64,000 bases of DNA, from IMG/VR virus record IMGVR_UViG_3300046779_001269, positions 32,001 to 96,000 of that record. One strand, given 5' to 3'. Position numbers and translations under genes: made by a program. This DNA is from a virus. Within the stretch, counting starts at the first letter, position 1; every line of letters begins with the position of its first letter. Positions 9,762 to 17,063 of this stretch are shown piece by piece. Under the pieces are notes generated by a model that was not told the DNA's origin, did no database searches, and saw only the letters and a program-made list of their open reading frames with translations.

Positions 9762-9838
9762 TGGTTGCAGTGGCTGGACTCGCACCAACGACCTCCGAGG
9801 GTATGAACCTGGTGAGATAGCTTCTTCTCTACACTGCT
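9762..9838 (-). tRNA. tRNA-Met(CAT), probably initiator
   Basis: Cloverleaf, CAT anticodon, A1:A72 mismatch, CCA. Confidence 0.75.
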
Positions 9839-9843
9839 ACAAA

Positions 9844-9908
9844 TGGAGCGGGAAACAAGATTCTCACTTGTATATTGGGTGGACCCCAACATTGTTAAAA
9901 ACTCCCGC
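9844..9908 (-). ncRNA. D-armless tRNA-Gly(TCC)-like RNA, 65 nt
   Basis: GCGGGAG/TTCCCGC-T-CCA acceptor, anticodon arm with TCC, T-arm ACAAG-TGAGAAT-CTTGT, no D stem. Confidence 0.7.
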
Positions 9909-9917
9909 ATATACTCT

Positions 9918-10017
9918 ATATAGAAACACACTAACCGTTATACAAAGCCTTCTGTATAACACGGAGGAATAAATTCCTGCTTATCCGTTAAACTGTCATT
10001 AATGTGTTTTTATATGG
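9918..10017 (-). ncRNA. tRNA-trailer RNA closed by ATATAAAAACACA/TGTGTTTCTATAT stem (copy 1)
   Basis: Terminal complement shared with 12450..12569; two internal hairpins. Confidence 0.55.
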
Positions 10018-10088
10018 AGCGGGATAAGAGAATCGAACTCTTAACCGAAGATTGGAAATCTGCTGTTTTACCATTAAACTAATCCCGC
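10015..10088 (-). tRNA. tRNA-Gly(TCC)
   Basis: Cloverleaf, TCC, U73, CCA. Confidence 0.92.
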
Positions 10089-10092
10089 ATAT

Positions 10093-10978
10093 TGGCGCAC
10101 TGAGATTACATGCTGCCCATTGACACCTCATTCATTATAGTAAGCCTTGCGAGCCTACCTTCGCATGATATCCACCACAACTGTATTGCTACATATTGCA
10201 GTCTGTCAACAACATCGCCGTTTTGAAAGTCAGGCACTAGACTTGTCGCCATAAACTACTCTACGCTTTCTACCCCGTTGACCTTGCGAGCCATTCACAG
10301 TCGCTAAACCGTTACGAAACTTCTTGCATAAACTATCGTCACCTTGCGAGCTTCAATAGACTTGATTGTGTTACCACTCAAGTATTAGATGTTTTTCATC
10401 TATGACCGTGTCAGTCTTTGCGTTTTATTGTTAGAAGGAGTCGAACCTTCAGTCTATTTCTTGAAATGAAATTGGCCTACCATTAGCCTATAACTGAACC
10501 TACTGCGATGTGCTGACACAGTTGCTGCATACTCTTTTGGAATACACAATACAACACACCACGTACCTTTTGTCTTGCGAACTACTCAGTCGTCTTTCAC
10601 GATTAGTGTGACCCCGCCGATTTCTCGACAGCCCCAGTAACCATTCAAACTGCATACGAGCCCTTGACTGCAACATCTCGGACAAATACGCTACCCTTTC
10701 TCATACTGACTGGCAAGTTAGTGTTGTTGTGAGACTCAGCACCACCTGTTAGTTCTCTGTCTGCCTGTCTTACCCTCACGGGAACATAAACAGACATTCT
10801 TTCCACAACTCTTGCTTCCTCATTACATCCACCCGTCTTATAAGTGAACGACACCTCACGGTGTTGAGCAGGCTTGTTTAGATAGACTATTTCTAGCGGA
10901 GTTATGTAGGCATACCTCCTTTGGGTGACTCACGCCACTTATCTTAATGATGCTAAACCACCATTTGTTTTTCAACAT
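10093..10978 (-). ncRNA. large structured ncRNA, GOLLD-like
   Basis: ~880 nt, no credible ORF, own consensus promoter, inside a phage tRNA array, repeated GCUCGCAAGG hairpin units, embedded tRNA-like domain, ends GUAAUCUCAGUGCGCCA. Confidence 0.7.
10427..10497 (-). ncRNA. tRNA-Glu(TTC)-like domain embedded in the large ncRNA
   Basis: D arm GGCT/GGCC, anticodon arm ATTTC-ATTTCAA-GAAAT, T arm GAAGG-TTCGACT-CCTTC; only a 4-bp acceptor and no CCA. Confidence 0.65.
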
Positions 10979-10984
10979 GTATGT

Positions 10985-11013
10985 ATTGTATCAGAACCGA
11001 AGTGTCTTGTCAA
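10985..11013 (-). promoter_or_regulatory. sigma70 promoter TTGACA-17-TACAAT for the large ncRNA
   Basis: Near-consensus hexamers and spacing. Confidence 0.8.
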
Positions 11014-11078
11014 CACTTATTGTGGTATATTTACAACACACACATAAAATTTTTATTTGTAGAGTTAATACAAAAATC

Positions 11079-11152
11079 TGGTGCCCCTAGAGAGAATCGA
11101 ACTCCCGTCCTCGGATTACAAAACCGATGTTCTACCATTTAACTACAGGGGC
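11079..11152 (-). tRNA. tRNA-Thr(TGT)
   Basis: Cloverleaf, TGT, CCA. Confidence 0.9.
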
Positions 11153-11157
11153 AAATT

Positions 11158-11231
11158 TGGAGCGGGTAGCGAGAATCGAACTCGCAAATAAACCTTGGCA
11201 AGGTTTCAGGTTACCTTTACATCATACCCGC
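11158..11231 (-). tRNA. tRNA-Gly(GCC)
   Basis: Cloverleaf, GCC, CCA. Confidence 0.92.
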
Positions 11232-11240
11232 AATTTGTTT

Positions 11241-11269
11241 ATTATATATGCTTTACAATCACTTGTCAA
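11241..11269 (-). promoter_or_regulatory. sigma70 promoter TTGACA-17-TATAAT
   Basis: Perfect consensus upstream of tRNA-Gly(GCC). Confidence 0.8.
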
Positions 11270-11290
11270 GCACTCCTAGAAAATATTTTT

Positions 11291-11376
11291 TGGTGCGGGT
11301 AGCCGGACTCGAACCAGCACGCCATAAGGCGGGAGATTTTAAGTCTCCTGTGTACTACCAATTTCACCATACCCGC
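11291..11376 (-). tRNA. tRNA-Leu(TAA)
   Basis: Cloverleaf with long variable arm, TAA, CCA. Confidence 0.92.
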
Positions 11377-11379
11377 ACA

Positions 11380-11952
11380 TTACATTGTTGGTCCGTTTCC
11401 GTTTTTGAAACCGACTTCACCACCTTCATCTTTGATTCGTTTGATAACATCTTCAAAAAGAATAGGACGAAAATCTGTTTGTTCAACGCAAACACAATGA
11501 TATCTCACATCAACCTTAGAATTTTTAACACCTGTCATCACACGACCAGTATGAAGGTGACCGTGAATGTTAGTACCAAAACGACCAAGACTGGCTTCGT
11601 GAATTGGAATATGTGAAAGAATCATTCCGTTCATTACATGATATGCACGAAGTTCACGGAAGTGTTCTCTATATTCTTCATCACGGAAGATATCATGGTT
11701 ACCACGAATAAGAACCTTATCGCCGTTAAGTCTATGCATAATGCTAAGTGCTTTACGGTTGATAACTACATCACCAAGGTGATATACTTTATCATTTGGT
11801 CTTACTGTTTCGTTCCAACGCTTTACCATTTCCTCATCCATTTCAGCAGGATCAGTCCATGGTCTAATCTTTTGACCTGTGGTCGAATCGGTGAACCTAC
11901 ACACACCAGCATGGCCAAAGTGTGTATCACTTACAAGAAATACTGCTGGCAT
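11380..11952 (-). CDS. calcineurin-like metallophosphoesterase
   Basis: SDTHFGH, HLGDV, RGNHD, HGHLH. Confidence 0.9.
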   Translation of the reverse strand: MPAVFLVSDTHFGHAGVCRFTDSTTGQKIRPWTDPAEMDEEMVKRWNETVRPNDKVYHLGDVVINRKALSIMHRLNGDKVLIRGNHDIFRDEEYREHFRELRAYHVMNGMILSHIPIHEASLGRFGTNIHGHLHTGRVMTGVKNSKVDVRYHCVCVEQTDFRPILFEDVIKRIKDEGGEVGFKNGNGPTM

Positions 11953-11968
11953 AATGTCTCCTAAAAAA

Positions 11969-12043
11969 TGGTCCGGCGTGCAGGAATCGAACCCACATTA
12001 AAAGGGTAGAAGCCTTCTGTATTATCCATTATACTAACGCCAG
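11969..12043 (-). tRNA. tRNA-Arg(TCT)
   Basis: Cloverleaf, TCT, CCA. Confidence 0.9.
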
Positions 12044-12049
12044 AATGTT

Positions 12050-12126
12050 TGGTGCCCTAGGAGGGACTCGAACCCTCAGAACCTGGTTTCTAAGACCAGT
12101 ACGTATACCAATTCCGTCACCAGGGC
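12050..12126 (-). tRNA. tRNA-Leu(TAG), short variable loop
   Basis: Cloverleaf, TAG, 77 nt, CCA. Confidence 0.88.
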
Positions 12127-12298
12127 AAAAAATAAATAATCTTATGTCAGAATTCAAATCAGCAGAACCTAATCTTTGGCGATATGCCGCAACTCAACCG
12201 TATAAAGATACTAAATCTTTTTCGTGTGAGAAGGATTTTACACTTTCCTTTCCAAAAAGGCAAGTGGTTCCGTTTGAACGAACTGAAATAAAACAACT

Positions 12299-12372
12299 TG
12301 GTGCTCCAAGAAAGAATCGAACTTTCATTTAATCCTTACCATGGATTTGTTCTGCCATTAAACTATAGGAGC
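12299..12372 (-). tRNA. tRNA-Thr(GGT)
   Basis: Cloverleaf, GGT, CCA. Confidence 0.9.
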
Positions 12373-12376
12373 AAAG

Positions 12377-12451
12377 TGGTGGGTCATCAGAGAATCAAAC
12401 TCTGTTCTTCCGGTTAAGAGCCGGTTGCTTCATCACTTAAGCTTATAACCC
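12377..12451 (-). tRNA. tRNA-Lys(CTT)
   Basis: Cloverleaf, CTT, CCA. Confidence 0.88.
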
Positions 12452-12569
12452 ATATAGAAACACACTGTACCTCTGCCGTGATTACGCCGATATCTAACGC
12501 ATCTGCGGACAACATATGATTACTTTTCTAGAATTTTCATCTTTTCAGATATAATGTGTTTTTATATGG
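12450..12569 (-). ncRNA. tRNA-trailer RNA closed by CCATATAAAAACACA/TGTGTTTCTATATGG stem (copy 2)
   Basis: Terminal complement; same stem as copy 1. Confidence 0.55.
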
Positions 12570-12643
12570 TACCCAAGGTGGGATTCGAGCCCACAAAAAC
12601 ATGTGTTTGAGACATGCACGTTTACCTATTTCGTCACTTGGGC
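12567..12643 (-). tRNA. tRNA-Leu(CAA), short variable loop
   Basis: Cloverleaf, CAA, 77 nt, CCA. Confidence 0.85.
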
Positions 12644-12646
12644 ATT

Positions 12647-12722
12647 TGGTGCAACCTACAGGAATCGAACCTGTTTCAACGGCTCTTCAGACCGCCGCTA
12701 TGACCACATCAGCTAAAGTTGC
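12647..12722 (-). tRNA. tRNA-Phe(GAA)
   Basis: Cloverleaf, GAA, CCA. Confidence 0.92.
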
Positions 12723-12730
12723 ATATTGAA

Positions 12731-12927
12731 TTTGTAAGTTGTGCCACCATCGTTATTGACACCATTCACCCAAGTATATAAAGCCGGCTGGGACTCGGTA
12801 CGTTATTACAGTTACTCATCCAACGTGTCTATATTTTGTACAGAGGTTTTGCGCCTCCCGTTGTTTACCTCCTCTTTGGCTGGCCAGCTACTTGAATCGG
12901 TGACTTTCACTTACTAACACTTACAAA
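12731..12927 (-). ncRNA. unassigned ~200-nt structured RNA
   Basis: Nested pairings TTTGTAAGT/ACTTACAAA, GTCACC/GGTGGC, TTCAAGTA/TACTTGGG, AGCTGGC/GCCGGCT; non-coding, between tRNAs. Confidence 0.55.
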
Positions 12928-12930
12928 AAT

Positions 12931-13005
12931 TGGTGCATCGTGAGAGGATTGAACTCCCGACCTTCGCCTTGTAAGGGCGCAGCTCTACCGCTGAGCTAAC
13001 GATGC
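12931..13005 (-). tRNA. tRNA-Val(TAC)
   Basis: Cloverleaf, TAC, CCA. Confidence 0.92.
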
Positions 13006-13015
13006 AAATTTACTT

Positions 13016-13090
13016 TGGGGAGACATACGAGAATCGAACTCGTGATAACGGAATCACAACCCGTGGTTTTACCACTAAACTAATGTCTCC
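13016..13090 (-). tRNA. tRNA-His(GTG)
   Basis: Cloverleaf, GTG, encoded G-1:C73, CCA. Confidence 0.92.
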
Positions 13091-13123
13091 CCAAAGCAAA
13101 CTTAATTACTTTGGGGGTCTGTA

Positions 13124-13621
13124 TTAACCTGCAATAGCTTCTTGCTCTGCCAGAATTCTTTTCAATCTGTCAGCACAGAAACTTGCAGCAGGCGCATCTG
13201 GTTTAACCATAGGTGTCATGTTACATGTACCTTTGATATAACCAATCGCTTGTTGCACAACACAAGAACTGCCGTGCATATCATCTTTGTTCAAGTCTAG
13301 GTGAACTTCAACATGATAATCTTCTAACACTTCAGCCAATGATTGGAACAATTCTGATACCTTATATACTTCTGTCATCAGACGCATAGCAGGTTTACTT
13401 TTCTTGTGGTCATAATCTAATTCACGGTCAACATAACCGAAAATTTTACAACCATGACGGCCATCAATATGAACTACGACAGCCAATGCATAATCAGCAT
13501 ACCAAACGCCGTTAACACGGATACGTTCAGAGTCAGCACCCAAATAAACTTTCGTATCTGGTCCTTGATTTGCAAGGAATTGTTTGACTTCTTGTATGTC
13601 GAAATTTCTCATATCAATCAC
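13124..13621 (-). CDS. RNase H-like YkuK/DUF458 family protein
   Basis: VYLGADSE, RLMTEV, EVHLDLN, KPDAPAASFCAD. Confidence 0.8.
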   Translation of the reverse strand: MIDMRNFDIQEVKQFLANQGPDTKVYLGADSERIRVNGVWYADYALAVVVHIDGRHGCKIFGYVDRELDYDHKKSKPAMRLMTEVYKVSELFQSLAEVLEDYHVEVHLDLNKDDMHGSSCVVQQAIGYIKGTCNMTPMVKPDAPAASFCADRLKRILAEQEAIAG

Positions 13622-13634
13622 CTTTCTATAAAAT

Positions 13635-13708
13635 TGGCTCCCCGCCAGGGAATCGAACCCCGTCCAAAAGTTTTGGAGACTCTTGTGCTACCGGAACACT
13701 TGCGGGAA
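13635..13708 (-). tRNA. tRNA-Trp(CCA)
   Basis: Cloverleaf, CCA anticodon, 3' CCA. Confidence 0.88.
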
Positions 13709-13715
13709 ATAAACT

Positions 13716-13789
13716 TGGTACCTTGTACAAGAATCGAACTTGTGTCTACCGGTTATCAGCCGGGTGCTCTGCCATTGAGCTAACGAGGT
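13716..13789 (-). tRNA. tRNA-Ile(GAT)
   Basis: Cloverleaf, GAT, CCA. Confidence 0.92.
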
Positions 13790-13792
13790 AAA

Positions 13793-14034
13793 ATGCTCTG
13801 ACATCCTGCGGCGGTAATTATACTTCTCAAGTCTTTCATCGTCATTTGACACATACAGGCATGACCCATACACATCATCGGATTACTTAACCATCACAGA
13901 AGCCTCCACCCGCTTCCCGACCAGGACCGTTATCGCATTGCTAGCGGCCTTTCGGTTTAAAGACTACCACCCGTGTATATCATTACACTTCTCATCCTGC
14001 GGGTCACAGTAGTGGTTGACGAGACCACACGTTC
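13793..14034 (-). ncRNA. unassigned ~240-nt structured RNA
   Basis: GC-richer non-coding spacer with GNRA-type hairpins (CCGAAAGG, CGC-TAGCAAT-GCG) and a 10-nt direct repeat CCGCAGGATG near both ends. Confidence 0.55.
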
Positions 14035-14109
14035 TGGAGGGCAATGAGAGAATCAAACTCCCGTTTCAAGGTTCGTAGCCTCGTGTATTATTCACTATAC
14101 GAATCGCCC
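14035..14109 (-). tRNA. tRNA-Arg(ACG)
   Basis: Cloverleaf, ACG, CCA. Confidence 0.88.
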
Positions 14110-14115
14110 ATAAAT

Positions 14116-14191
14116 TGGTGCAGCCAAAGGACTCGAACCTTTGCGGGAAACTAGTATACAGCGGACATGCCGCCTACCCCTCCATTACTGC
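14116..14191 (-). ncRNA. tRNA-like RNA with T arm and ACCA but non-canonical body
   Basis: GCAGT/GCTGC-A-CCA, CAAAGG-TTCGAGT-CCTTTG; no standard D or anticodon arm. Confidence 0.6.
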
Positions 14192-14197
14192 ATATCT

Positions 14198-14272
14198 TGG
14201 TGGTTCAGGTGAGAATCGAACTCACACAAGGCACCGTATGAAGATGCTGCACTGCCACTATGCTACTGAACC
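14198..14272 (-). tRNA. tRNA-Met(CAT), probably elongator
   Basis: Cloverleaf, CAT, fully paired acceptor, CCA. Confidence 0.8.
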
Positions 14273-14278
14273 GAAATT

Positions 14279-14353
14279 TGGTGGAGGCCGAGGAAATCGA
14301 ATCCTTCTAGACATTCTCCTTGCAAGGGAGAACCGCAGCCCACTGCTGCCCCC
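14279..14353 (-). tRNA. tRNA-Ala(TGC), atypical D arm
   Basis: TGC anticodon, G3:U70, A73, 4-nt D loop, CCA. Confidence 0.8.
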
Positions 14354-14402
14354 AAATAACTTACTACTTATCTCATTGTACGCCGCAAGTTAAGGCGAGA
14401 TA

Positions 14403-14478
14403 TGGTCTCCGTAGAGGGATTTGAACCCCCACTGCTTGGTCCCAAACCAAGAGCGCTACCAGGTTACGCTATACGGAG
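14403..14478 (-). tRNA. tRNA-Pro(TGG)
   Basis: Cloverleaf, TGG, CCA. Confidence 0.92.
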
Positions 14479-14483
14479 AAAAT

Positions 14484-14559
14484 TGGCTCCCTAGGTATGG
14501 ATCGAACATACGACATCCTGATTAACAGTCAGGCGCAACTACCGCTGTGCTACTAGGGA
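14484..14559 (-). tRNA. tRNA-Asn(GTT)
   Basis: Cloverleaf, GTT, CCA. Confidence 0.92.
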
Positions 14560-14644
14560 ATAAAATCTTGAAAGTTCCGATATCACCCATCGTCACTAAC
14601 AACCGTTGAGTAACCATGCATCAAAACAAGATTACTATTTGCCT

Positions 14645-14719
14645 TGGCGCCCCGTAGGGGAATCGAACCCCTGTCTTCCGATGGACAGTCGGATATAATG
14701 GCCGTTATATTAACGGGGC
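14645..14719 (-). tRNA. tRNA-Asp(GTC)
   Basis: Cloverleaf, GTC, CCA. Confidence 0.9.
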
Positions 14720-14724
14720 ATAAT

Positions 14725-14809
14725 TGGTGGAGACGGTGTGAGTCGAACACACAGTGCCAGAGGCGGCGGATTTACAGTCCACTGGGGTTACCAATTTTCC
14801 TACATCTCC
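14725..14809 (-). tRNA. tRNA-Tyr(GTA)
   Basis: Cloverleaf with variable arm, GTA, CCA. Confidence 0.92.
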
Positions 14810-14818
14810 ATAATTGTT

Positions 14819-14893
14819 TGGTAGGTCCACAGAGAATCGAACTCTGATTTACTGGTTAAAAGCCAGTTACTTTAGCCGTTAAGTTATGAACCC
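14819..14893 (-). tRNA. tRNA-Lys(TTT)
   Basis: Cloverleaf, TTT, CCA. Confidence 0.9.
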
Positions 14894-14897
14894 ATTT

Positions 14898-15022
14898 ACC
14901 ATTTGTTTTACTGACGCACTATTTGCTATGTTTCACCGGAGTAGCGGCCGCATTACCGTTTCTTAACATAGTTACATAAGGCTTGTACATGCTTCTGAGC
15001 TTACATCAGCAAAACAAATGGT
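14898..15022 (-). ncRNA. tRNA-trailer RNA closed by ~19-bp stem ACCATTTGTTTTGCTGATG/CGTCAGTAAAACAAATGGT
   Basis: Long terminal complement starting at the ACCA of tRNA-Glu. Confidence 0.55.
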
Positions 15023-15093
15023 ACACGATACGAGAATCGAACTCGTCTTTCCGCCTTGAAAGGGCAGCGTCCTAACCGATAGACGAATCGTGC
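15019..15093 (-). tRNA. tRNA-Glu(TTC)
   Basis: Cloverleaf, TTC, CCA. Confidence 0.92.
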
Positions 15094-15096
15094 ATT

Positions 15097-15182
15097 TATT
15101 AACTCTACAAATTTTTAAAGAACAAGTGTGTATTGTATCACAACCACATCTTTTGTCAACCATTGTGTTGCAAAATTACAAC
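15097..15182 (-). promoter_or_regulatory. promoter cassette: GTTG-N8-CAAC palindrome, TTGACA-16-TACAAT, boxA-like TGTTCTTTAAAA leader
   Basis: Leader duplicated at 15764..15791. Confidence 0.7.
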
Positions 15183-15188
15183 ACAACT

Positions 15189-15262
15189 TGGAGTAGGTGA
15201 CAGGAATCGAACCTGTTTCCATGGGTTTGCAATCCAGTGCCTGTCCAACTGGCTCCACCTAC
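15189..15262 (-). tRNA. tRNA-Cys(GCA)
   Basis: Cloverleaf, GCA, U73, CCA. Confidence 0.88.
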
Positions 15263-15268
15263 ATTGTT

Positions 15269-15360
15269 TGGTACCAGCGGTGAGAATCGAACTCACTCAA
15301 GAACGCTAATCTGGCGCTAAAAGGTGTATAAGACCTCTCTGACTACCAAGTCTCGCTGGC
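15269..15360 (-). tRNA. tRNA with TAT anticodon (Ile), long variable arm, 4-nt D loop
   Basis: GAGGT-CTTATAC-ACCTT anticodon arm, T arm, CCA; 92 nt. Confidence 0.75.
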
Positions 15361-15363
15361 ATT

Positions 15364-15451
15364 TGGCGGAGAGTATCGGATTCGAACCGATGCGCCGATT
15401 TCTCAACGACAGTTTAGCAAACTGCTGGTTTAACCACTCACCCAACTCTCC
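15364..15451 (-). tRNA. tRNA-Ser(GCT)
   Basis: Cloverleaf with variable arm, GCT, G73, CCA. Confidence 0.92.
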
Positions 15452-15458
15452 ATAAATT

Positions 15459-15550
15459 TGGCGGAAAGCAGAGGAGTCGAACCCCATCCCATTTCTGAGA
15501 ACCTAGTTTTCAAGGCTAGTCGCCGGACCATCCCAGCTGCATTACTTTCC
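15459..15550 (-). tRNA. tRNA-Ser(TGA)
   Basis: TGA anticodon, variable arm, G73, CCA; extended D region. Confidence 0.85.
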
Positions 15551-15558
15551 ATTAATTA

Positions 15559-15687
15559 CCATATAGAAGCACGCTACGGAATCGAACCGCCGTGCTAGCC
15601 TGCTCCCCAAAGCGATGATACATCTTTAACCCAGAACCTCAGGAGCTACCTGATTTGTTAAAGATATACTAGCGCACTTCTATATGG
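15559..15687 (-). ncRNA. tRNA-trailer RNA closed by CCATATAGAAGTGCGCTA/TAGCGTGCTTCTATATGG stem, with T-loop (copy 3)
   Basis: 18-bp terminal complement; GCGG-TTCGATT-CCGT next to the 3' strand; internal TATCTTTAAC/GTTAAAGATG. Confidence 0.6.
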
Positions 15688-15758
15688 CACCCCCACTTGG
15701 AATCAAACCAAGACTAACAAGTTCAAAGCCTGTTGTGCTATCACTACACCATGGAGGA
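15685..15758 (-). tRNA. tRNA-Gln(TTG)
   Basis: Cloverleaf, TTG, G73, CCA. Confidence 0.88.
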
Positions 15759-15763
15759 ACAAT

Positions 15764-15850
15764 TATTAACTCTACAAATTTTTAAAGAACAAGATGTGTA
15801 TTGTAACAGAATCAAAGAATCTGGCAACTACACTGTTGTTTTGAAACAAC
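15764..15850 (-). promoter_or_regulatory. promoter cassette: GTTG-N8-CAAC palindrome, TTGCCA-16-TACAAT, boxA-like leader
   Basis: Same architecture as 15097..15182. Confidence 0.65.
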
Positions 15851-15852
15851 AA

Positions 15853-15891
15853 ACAAAAAACCCTAGTAGATTTCTCTTACTAGGGTCTTGT
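15853..15891 (-). terminator. intrinsic terminator (candidate attenuator) upstream of the tRNA array
   Basis: ACCCTAGT-A-AGA-GAAA-TCT-ACTAGGGT followed by a T-rich tract. Confidence 0.85.
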
Positions 15892-15918
15892 GTTTGGAGT
15901 CTTTTTAGAACTTTTTTA

Positions 15919-16035
15919 TTATCCGTCCCATCCTTCATCTACACAAAACCCGAGCGACCATGAGCCATTATCGGCACTATTAATTGTGCGATACTCTGGC
16001 TGCAATGTAAAGGGTTTATGGGATATGAGAGACAC
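15919..16035 (-). CDS. candidate leader peptide, 38 aa, contains all 20 amino acids
   Basis: GTG start after AGAAAG; MSLISHKPFTLQPEYRTINSADNGSWSLGFCVDEGWDG, tandem TAA TAA; lies between promoter and terminator. Confidence 0.6.
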   Translation of the reverse strand: MSLISHKPFTLQPEYRTINSADNGSWSLGFCVDEGWDG

Positions 16036-16066
16036 TTTTTTCTTTCTAAAAATTAAATATGTTTGT

Positions 16067-16095
16067 ATTATATAGTAAACTTGGAGCCTTGGCAA
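16067..16095 (-). promoter_or_regulatory. sigma70 promoter TTGCCA-17-TATAAT for the leader
   Basis: Near-consensus match and spacing. Confidence 0.75.
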
Positions 16096-16119: not shown

Positions 16120-16623
16120 TTATTTCCACCTAATTGGCTCGGAAACCACGGGTAAATTTGGATTTTTGAAGCCGTGGAAGACTTCCCACAGACATTCTTG
16201 TACAGCAAACTTGGTCAAAAGACCTGATTCACGACCATGAGCATCTATTTCCCATGGATGTTCCCAATAATCTACCTTGTCAGAATCTATGCGTTTACCT
16301 CTCCACATGGACAGGTCATCATTCGTTTCGCCACAGATTAATTGTTTGACATGCACCATTTCATGTGCAAGTGTGGAGAGTATGGTGGATGCACCTAGAC
16401 CAGGATGGACCTCAATTAGAAACTGTCGAGGTTGATTTCTTGTATTGTAACCTTCCGCACCACATGAACCATAATTTTCCAACTTAGCATCAAAACGAAC
16501 AATCGTGGTACAATTATTTCTGATTCTGGAATTTGTTATCAATTCTTTGGCGAAAAATTCGGTTGCCCGTACAATGTAAGGCTTAAAGTATTTGTCAGGA
16601 CAGTTGTAGACTTTTACTTGCAT
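16120..16623 (-). CDS. zincin-like metallopeptidase
   Basis: LAHEMVHVKQ (HExxH) and PWEIDA. Confidence 0.75.
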   Translation of the reverse strand: MQVKVYNCPDKYFKPYIVRATEFFAKELITNSRIRNNCTTIVRFDAKLENYGSCGAEGYNTRNQPRQFLIEVHPGLGASTILSTLAHEMVHVKQLICGETNDDLSMWRGKRIDSDKVDYWEHPWEIDAHGRESGLLTKFAVQECLWEVFHGFKNPNLPVVSEPIRWK

Positions 16624-16631
16624 AAGCCTAT

Positions 16632-17063
16632 TTAGATTTGCTCTACTTTCACTCCTGCTTTTTCCAAGAATTGTATGCCAGCTTCACTACGGTAAGTGTT
16701 GCGATAGTAAACAGAATTGATACCAGATTGGTAAACCAATTTGGCACAGTCCAAACAAGGTGCGTGAGTAACGAACAAAGTAGAATCAAGGCCAGATTCG
16801 TTTGACTTTGCCAACTTAGCGATTGCATTTGTTTCAGCATGAAGTACCTCCGGTTTAGTTTCTAATATAACAACTCTTGTTTTGTCGGTCCATTCAGTTT
16901 CACAATTGTTGTCCCAACCGGATGGCATTCCATTGTATCCAATAGAAATAATGCGGTCATCTTTTACGATAACCGCACCAACTTGTAGTCGTCTGGCTGT
17001 AGAACATTCTGCGAATGTCTCAGCCATCTTCATATATGCATCACGAAATTTTTGTTTCATCAA
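16632..17063 (-). CDS. cd: dCMP deaminase
   Basis: IGYNG, HAETNA, PCLDC. Confidence 0.92.
   Translation of the reverse strand: MMKQKFRDAYMKMAETFAECSTARRLQVGAVIVKDDRIISIGYNGMPSGWDNNCETEWTDKTRVVILETKPEVLHAETNAIAKLAKSNESGLDSTLFVTHAPCLDCAKLVYQSGINSVYYRNTYRSEAGIQFLEKAGVKVEQI

Follow-up and report, generated by a model that had tools for sequence, protein, structure and literature searches.

A predicted ribosome-controlled attenuator with a broad amino-acid leader ahead of the tRNA array of a T4-like phage

Antitermination linked to tRNA status is known from T-box riboswitches, which recognize a single uncharged tRNA by direct binding and work without an ORF; the leader described here shares the link to antitermination and would work through an ORF. 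Among amino-acid leaders, those of thrL, ilvGMEDA and ilvBN are multivalent. At the mycobacterial whiB7 uORF, a stall at many positions reportedly switches on the downstream unit. Stalls at many positions likewise switch on the unit downstream of toiL in E. coli, which acts via occlusion of a ribosome-binding site and via Rho (PMC12121999). Neither of these two controls tRNA genes, and a codon match to downstream tRNAs is not reported for either. Closest in layout are the attenuators of amino-acid operons (trpL, hisL, leuL, pheL), which have in common with our leader a short ORF and an intrinsic terminator, and whose 1:2/2:3/3:4 pairings and read-through upon stalling (PMC1183508) are predicted for our leader as well. 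They differ in carrying runs of one to three amino acids and in controlling enzymes, whereas the phage leader devotes roughly one codon to each amino acid, for as many as 20 of them, has tRNA as its output and is carried by a phage.

Long, stress-induced tRNA arrays are also known outside phages. The Anabaena trn operon, a 26-gene tRNA L-array, is repressed by TrcR and induced under translational stress (PMC8421152, PMC10272220), and it is the only stress-induced tRNA array that we found in the literature searched. Unlike the phage array, it is controlled by a DNA-binding repressor, and the string "attenuat" is absent from the text of PMC8421152. Attenuation is known for enzymes of amino-acid supply; in the literature searched, most of it open access, no attenuator on tRNA genes was found, nor any codon-matched, nearly all-amino-acid leader on such genes.

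Anatomy and homologues of the leader

The window analyzed here is a 64-kb stretch (64,000 nucleotides) of a 176-kb virus with T4-like replication genes, whose clamp loader is about 61-63% identical to cyanophage and Stenotrophomonas phage homologues. Near-identical sequence is found mostly in freshwater runs, and relatives' sequence is present in freshwater RNA libraries, in the form of assembled contigs that carry no ends, strand or level.

A first-pass annotation had proposed that an attenuator sensing all amino acids precedes the phage tRNA array, beginning with a promoter TTGCCA-17-TATAAT. This promoter, P1, is indeed present on the minus strand at 16067-16095, with an 11/12 match to consensus. 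Its -10 box lies within TATATAATA, one base off the T4-type late motif, and may be used by a late sigma factor; the -35 box is missing in several homologues. Because the -10 box resembles the late motif, and because a late-type motif stands at 16635, ahead of the upstream gene, with no terminator found between it and the leader, the attenuator may matter most late in infection. Behind P1 the sequence offers a purine-rich ribosome-binding site, AGAAAG, at 16042-16047 (minus), and then the predicted leader ORF at 15919-16035 (minus), which has 38 codons plus TAA, as annotated, and a GTG rather than an ATG start. Recounting bore out the 31 distinct codons, with five Ser codons, three Gly codons and both ATA and ATT. 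The claim that all 20 amino acids occur has to be qualified, as 19 are internal and Met is present solely as the GTG initiator. In base shuffles of this ORF alone, all 20 amino acids are reached with P=0.011, and the codon count is not beyond chance (>=31 codons, P=0.18). Given that 64 kb were scanned, the amino-acid content of this single ORF is weak evidence, suggestive at most. The leader element occurs in a single copy in this genome.

Homologues were gathered with the upstream gene (16120-16623) as an anchor and then with DNA patterns, and some starts were corrected by hand. This yielded 76 distinct leaders ahead of tRNA arrays in related T4-like phages, forming 34 clusters at 80% peptide identity and 21 at 65%, along with some ten additional short leaders. 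The anchor gene carries an HExxH motif and has no Pfam match, and its identification as SprT was rejected as unsupported. The order promoter, ORF, terminator is found in all leaders, and tRNAs follow in all but one, where the contig ends. The leader ORF is open in every homologue, which is partly by construction, since the longest open frame over region 2 (see below) was chosen; the other two frames are interrupted by stops in 15/16 and 16/16 representatives. Together with a dN/dS of 0.47 in the best-aligned cluster, obtained despite the constraint of RNA structure, these comparisons argue for the ORF conservation that the first-pass annotation had named as a check on its proposal. Homologue starts are of two types, one with a purine-rich site and ATG, GTG or TTG, and the other a leaderless ATG about 3-9 nt (mostly 5-7) downstream of the -10 box.

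Searches of known families returned nothing for the leader itself. BLASTN against annotated phages gave no match across the leader, its peptides have no family match in Pfam, NCBIfam or PHROGs, and its RNA matches no Rfam family at gathering or E-value thresholds. A scan of GTDB with a single pattern found no locus of this anatomy before tRNAs; a loose pattern scan gave hits that are mostly chance. The named amino-acid leaders (Trp, His, Leu, Thr, Phe, Ilv) were rejected as identities for the leader, which has no Rfam or NCBIfam match to them, no codon runs, and tRNA genes downstream, and a T-box riboswitch was rejected for want of an Rfam match. Four metagenome contigs, L459 (2819), L471, L492 and L509, carry attenuator-like leaders whose antiterminator words also occur in the short phage leaders; L459, L492 and L509 continue into a leuA-like frame, a Leu-rich ORF that stops at region 2 is present in two of the four, and the L492 and L471 leaders have no Rfam match.

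Three relatives, L154, L166 and L170, have near-identical leaders beside upstream genes from different tree branches, and thus leader and array appear to move as a module. Six others (L040, L062, L201, L203, L219 and L224) have a terminator before the tRNAs without a leader ORF. In five of these six, the final codons of the upstream gene pair with the terminator 5' arm over 5-9 bp or more, 11-22 nt before the stop codon (51 nt in L224), at -6 to -14 kcal/mol. These leaderless forms are possibly an ancestral or reduced version coupled to a normal gene, and the pairings may be chance.

Competing RNA pairings and the predicted switch

The pairings fall into the layout of an amino-acid operon attenuator. 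Region 1, the putative protector at codons 5-8 (16012-16023, minus), can pair with region 2 and with codons 35-37. Region 2, the 5' strand of the predicted antiterminator, is formed by codons 29-32 (15941-15951, minus), and region 3, its 3' strand, lies at 15883-15893 (minus), where its final three C open the terminator arm. The intrinsic terminator spans 15850-15885 (minus), with the 3:4 hairpin at 15885-15861 and the U-tract at 15860-15850. The annotated 11/11 pairing between regions 2 and 3, overlapping the terminator 5' arm, was confirmed, with one G-U pair. A further hairpin within the ORF, at codons 15-23 (15969-15993, minus), is kept in long leaders and may serve as a pause site for the polymerase or as a scaffold for the fold adopted without translation.

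Comparison across homologues supports the 2:3 and 3:4 pairings of this arrangement. Region 2 pairs with its own region 3 at a mean of -16.3 kcal/mol, as against -12.0 with the region 3 of other leaders, a value equaled in 0/20,000 permutations in a type of test that kinship inflates. The 2:3 helix is anchored on a G run and a C run, of which two G-C pairs are kept in 34/34 representatives, and in this anchored register the positions beyond them show double changes (U-A/C-G and U-A/G-C). Double changes, of the kind that the first-pass annotation had named as a check on both helices, are also present in the terminator stem. Region 3 prefers region 2 over region 4 in 29/34, and 2:3 is therefore not a mere echo of the terminator. 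Co-variation of 2:3 was judged by these anchored counts and by cross-pairing; RNAalifold on an unguided MAFFT alignment of regions 2-3, in which the strands of the helix are visibly misaligned, gave no 2:3 consensus. Counted from the start codon, the G run falls into all three frames (14/14/6), and its frame was not used as evidence.

The protector is a more qualified case. In transcripts ending at the stop codon, 1:2 has a probability above 0.5 in 32/34 representatives, and region 1 modestly favors its own partner (-11.0 versus -9.7, p 0.0005). Once region 3 exists, however, 2:3 wins over 1:2 at equilibrium (median 0.99 in untranslated RNA). Without constraint, the leader folds at -64.8 kcal/mol (z -6.3) as an extended rod, with region 2 buried inside it, together with the terminator, and this fold contains both protector pairings simultaneously. 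A 6S RNA or other Rfam small RNA was rejected as an identity, as the 200-nt rod has no Rfam match. Full-length equilibrium folding often prefers the terminator, even with a stalled ribosome. Because of this, and because 2:3 wins over 1:2 at equilibrium, the attenuator decision must be kinetic, as it is in the attenuator model of PMC1183508.

To model stalling, the ribosome was taken to cover 6 nt past the A site, and results are given for leaders other than L007. In the leader studied here, 2:3 is predicted to form for stalls at codons 2-26 and to fail at codons 27-38. The earlier suggestion that a stall at almost any codon would allow read-through thus stands for codons 2-26, which specify 17 amino acids, and falls for codons 27-38, where stalls would cover region 2, and for Cys, Val and Met, which lie outside the sensitive stretch. 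Its last member is Trp codon 26 (15958-15960, minus), the last predicted stall that leaves region 2 free, across a 6-nt spacer. A Trp codon stands 6 nt upstream of the G run in 11/34 and, one mis-anchored row aside, never closer than 5; we set the 6-nt limit of the sensing stretch with this Trp spacing already in view. Val lies within the sensing stretch in only 8/27 leaders family-wide.

We consider it very probable, from the conserved anatomy and pairings, that the leader is a ribosome-controlled transcription attenuator. It is likely, with somewhat less assurance, that this trp-type attenuator monitors decoding of the amino acids served by the array and steps up tRNA production. In the mechanism that we infer, from translation and switching to the limits of sensing and the cause of tRNA depletion, RNA polymerase would start at P1 or read in from the upstream gene, and a ribosome would follow on the leader ORF. 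With fast decoding, the ribosome would sit at codons 27-38 and cover region 2 as regions 3 and 4 emerge, and the terminator would form. When a charged tRNA is scarce, it would wait at one of codons ~2-26, leaving region 2 free to form 2:3 and allowing read-through into the tRNA genes, and without translation region 1 would capture region 2 first and the terminator would again form. With one codon per amino acid, the leader would act as a broad OR-gate, responding to severe shortage of any one tRNA or to general slowing, and would not be a fine sensor of a single amino acid. In theory, a regulatory codon that is present only once makes for low sensitivity (PMC1183508); because such a design is insensitive to mild shortage, severe tRNA loss or broad slowing is the likely signal.

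Amino-acid breadth and correspondence with the tRNA set

The codon content of the leaders is broader than their composition would give. In 16 long leaders, one per 65%-identity cluster, 18.3 of the 19 non-Met amino acids are present versus 15.2 in base shuffles (z 9.2), and in the sensing stretch only, 17.2 versus 13.4 (z 10.3). Codon diversity, which in this ORF alone did not exceed shuffled controls, does so across the family (29.4 codons versus 26.3, z 6.7). Because common descent and the ORF-internal hairpin could explain conserved residues, we also permuted residues within alignment columns; the observed breadth exceeds the resulting 16.6 +/- 0.27 amino acids, with eight complete amino-acid sets against 0.9 under permutation, and within the best-aligned cluster breadth is 18.83 versus 18.48 +/- 0.10. 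Equal-length windows of phage proteins are mostly poorer in amino acids than the leaders, and by eye, His, Cys, Arg and Trp resurface elsewhere once lost from their old position. These comparisons indicate that the amino-acid breadth of the leaders is selected. Within the sensing stretch, U-ending codons are strongly preferred for Tyr, Phe and Asp, and GAG over GAA, unlike in phage genes; leader counts are 21 TAT to 0 TAC for Tyr and 15 GAT to 1 GAC for Asp. The internal hairpin and common ancestry account for part of this preference.

Leader content also follows what the array supplies. Arrays serving 19-20 amino acids have leaders of 31-43 codons, and those with 4-16 tRNAs have mostly shorter ones, for 4-14 tRNAs mostly of 21-30 codons; across 43 arrays, the array correlates with the breadth (Spearman 0.74) and with the length (0.85) of its leader. 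In 19 reduced arrays, the sensing stretch holds a codon for 126/148 amino acids that have a tRNA (85%) and for 95/213 that lack one (45%), with a p of 0.00025 when tRNA sets are permuted within clades. Asp matches in 19/19 reduced arrays and Cys in 18/19, and wherever tRNA-Pro, -Ala, -His, -Ser, -Trp or -Tyr is in the array, a matching codon is always in the leader. The correspondence extends to sisters, in that L068 has both a Trp codon and tRNA-Trp and L061 neither, and to codon boxes, since AGY codons track tRNA-Ser(GCU) in 41/43 and CGN codons track tRNA-Arg(ACG) in 39/43. AGR codons do not track tRNA-Arg(UCU) (3/29), and for Glu, Gly, Arg(AGR) and Gln tRNAs the codon is often missing from the sensing stretch; as a rule, tRNA-Gly(UCC) and tRNA-Arg(UCU) are encoded toward the end of the array, in many cases downstream of internal promoters.

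Changes on trees run in the same sense. Tree pairs change in the same direction by 25.6 to 0.4 on the upstream-gene tree and by 8.8 to 0.8 on the leader tree, sums in which one shrinkage is counted several times and in which pairs pooled over amino acids are not independent, leader and array being co-inherited. Tests on single amino acids had too few pairs for significance. In most tree pairs the leader is unchanged, and it therefore appears to lag tRNA loss; the clear case is the exceptional L170, in which a 19-amino-acid leader stands ahead of eight tRNAs.

On balance we lean toward the view that the leader is an inventory of the phage's own tRNAs, re-edited as they are gained or lost, and a feedback that would raise transcription when any listed tRNA is destroyed or exhausted, host tRNA-cleaving defenses included. 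If so, the leaders would be a readable record of the tRNAs that limit during infection. Why phages carry tRNA arrays is debated, with codon bias, host tRNA decay and anticodon-nuclease defense under discussion, and a cis switch that raises array output under slow decoding would mean that tRNA supply is regulated by need. The leader also offers a direct assay of which stress opens the switch, and a ready-made biosensor for tRNA depletion.

That the same switch is kept specifically as an on-demand counter-defense against host anticodon nucleases is a sub-case of the switch reading, not an alternative to it, and we regard it as possible and no better than tentative. Phage tRNAs do neutralize tRNA-cleaving defenses (PARIS, T5 tRNA-Lys; PMC11464382), a leader with a single codon for each amino acid is suited to the almost complete loss of one tRNA (PMC1183508), and amino-acid starvation would not be cured by more tRNA. 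However, no defense system could be linked to these phages, host tRNA decay or a heavy demand for A/U-ending codons would select the same design, U-ending codons being preferred in the leaders, and constitutive-looking promoters in the array would already provide resistant tRNA.

Alternatively, the leader may be a general sensor of transcription-translation coupling, akin to the whiB7 uORF or toiL, whose codon make-up is incidental. The pairing layout would react to stalls of every kind, those caused by antibiotics among them, the several leaderless relatives in which the upstream gene's end pairs with the terminator arm may have such coupling with no purpose-built leader, and the conserved Tyr-Arg...Asp motif is partly RNA hairpin. 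Yet breadth exceeds that of shuffles, other frames and column permutation, and leader content tracks each phage's tRNA set, which makes incidental codon content unlikely. A nascent-peptide arrest leader of the TnaC or SpeFL type, in which a ligand stalls the ribosome via a conserved motif, is very improbable. E-Y-R, N-C-x-D and W are nearly invariant in the largest cluster, in keeping with its low dN/dS, but Trp, His and Cys relocate or disappear in other clades, and no such motif is common to the short leaders, which, like the rest, lack a family match. We rejected the arrest-peptide class, as there is no position-fixed C-terminal motif and residues shift or vanish between clades.

Promoters and content of the tRNA array

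The attenuator reading has to accommodate promoters that bypass the switch. The terminator is followed by the first tRNA as annotated, across a gap of 104 nt that holds a second promoter, P2 (15800-15827, minus). Beyond P1, this array has four sigma-70-type promoters, at 15827, 15159, 11269 and 11013. Because P2 and three internal promoters bypass the switch, the attenuator in this genome is predicted to be a booster that adds to the output of other promoters, and the first-pass claim that it gates the array does not hold here. A counterpart of P2 is found in 21/38 arrays; in 12/38, the first tRNA begins 10-22 nt past the terminator, with no space for a promoter, and in those relatives the attenuator can, from its placement, be a true gate. 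In many relatives, then, the switch would be the sole entry to the first tRNAs.

Least credible of the readings we weighed is that of a separate small gene or small RNA ending in a terminator of its own, with 2:3 as a by-product of region 2 resembling the terminator 3' arm: P2 counterparts could serve the array alone where they exist, and RNAalifold on the plain MAFFT alignment found no 2:3 consensus, but that alignment misplaces the helix strands, region 3 prefers region 2 over region 4 and changes with it, and in the 12 arrays with closely spaced tRNAs no promoter can fit.

Candidate boxA-like words stand behind P2 (15779-15790, minus) and, as a second copy, behind P3 (15112-15123, minus), and are common in related arrays. 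They lie in near-identical stretches at 15764-15791 and 15097-15124 (minus).

The array itself (9762-15758, minus) comprises about 29-30 tRNA genes, with Gln(UUG) first and Met(CAU) last, and ORFs and a GOLLD RNA are interspersed. The set of tRNAs for 20 amino acids described in the first-pass annotation is complete only if tRNA-Ala(UGC) at 14279-14353 (minus) is accepted, which ARAGORN scores as a possible pseudogene. A tRNA-Ser(UGA) at 15463-15550 (minus) was missed by ARAGORN, a tRNA at 12380-12451 (minus) with an unusual anticodon loop was found by Rfam only, and the tRNA-Ile(UAU) at 15269-15360 (minus), 92 nt with a long variable arm, is present in most large arrays of relatives. The GOLLD RNA (Rfam RF02032, 194 bits) lies near the array end at 10097-10562 (minus), and a low-quality ARAGORN tRNA-Glu at 10425-10498 falls within it. 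Between tRNA-Gln and tRNA-Ser, at 15560-15680 (minus), is a structured RNA of about 120 nt, closed by a long stem and bearing a tRNA-like T-loop; it has no match in Rfam and resembles a Y-RNA-like tRNA mimic. Two genes within the array, at 11380-11952 and 13124-13621 (minus), encode a metallophosphoesterase and an RNase H-like protein (PF04308). In the array of one related phage (L367, G006), ARAGORN reports a tRNA with the anticodon CUA (amber).
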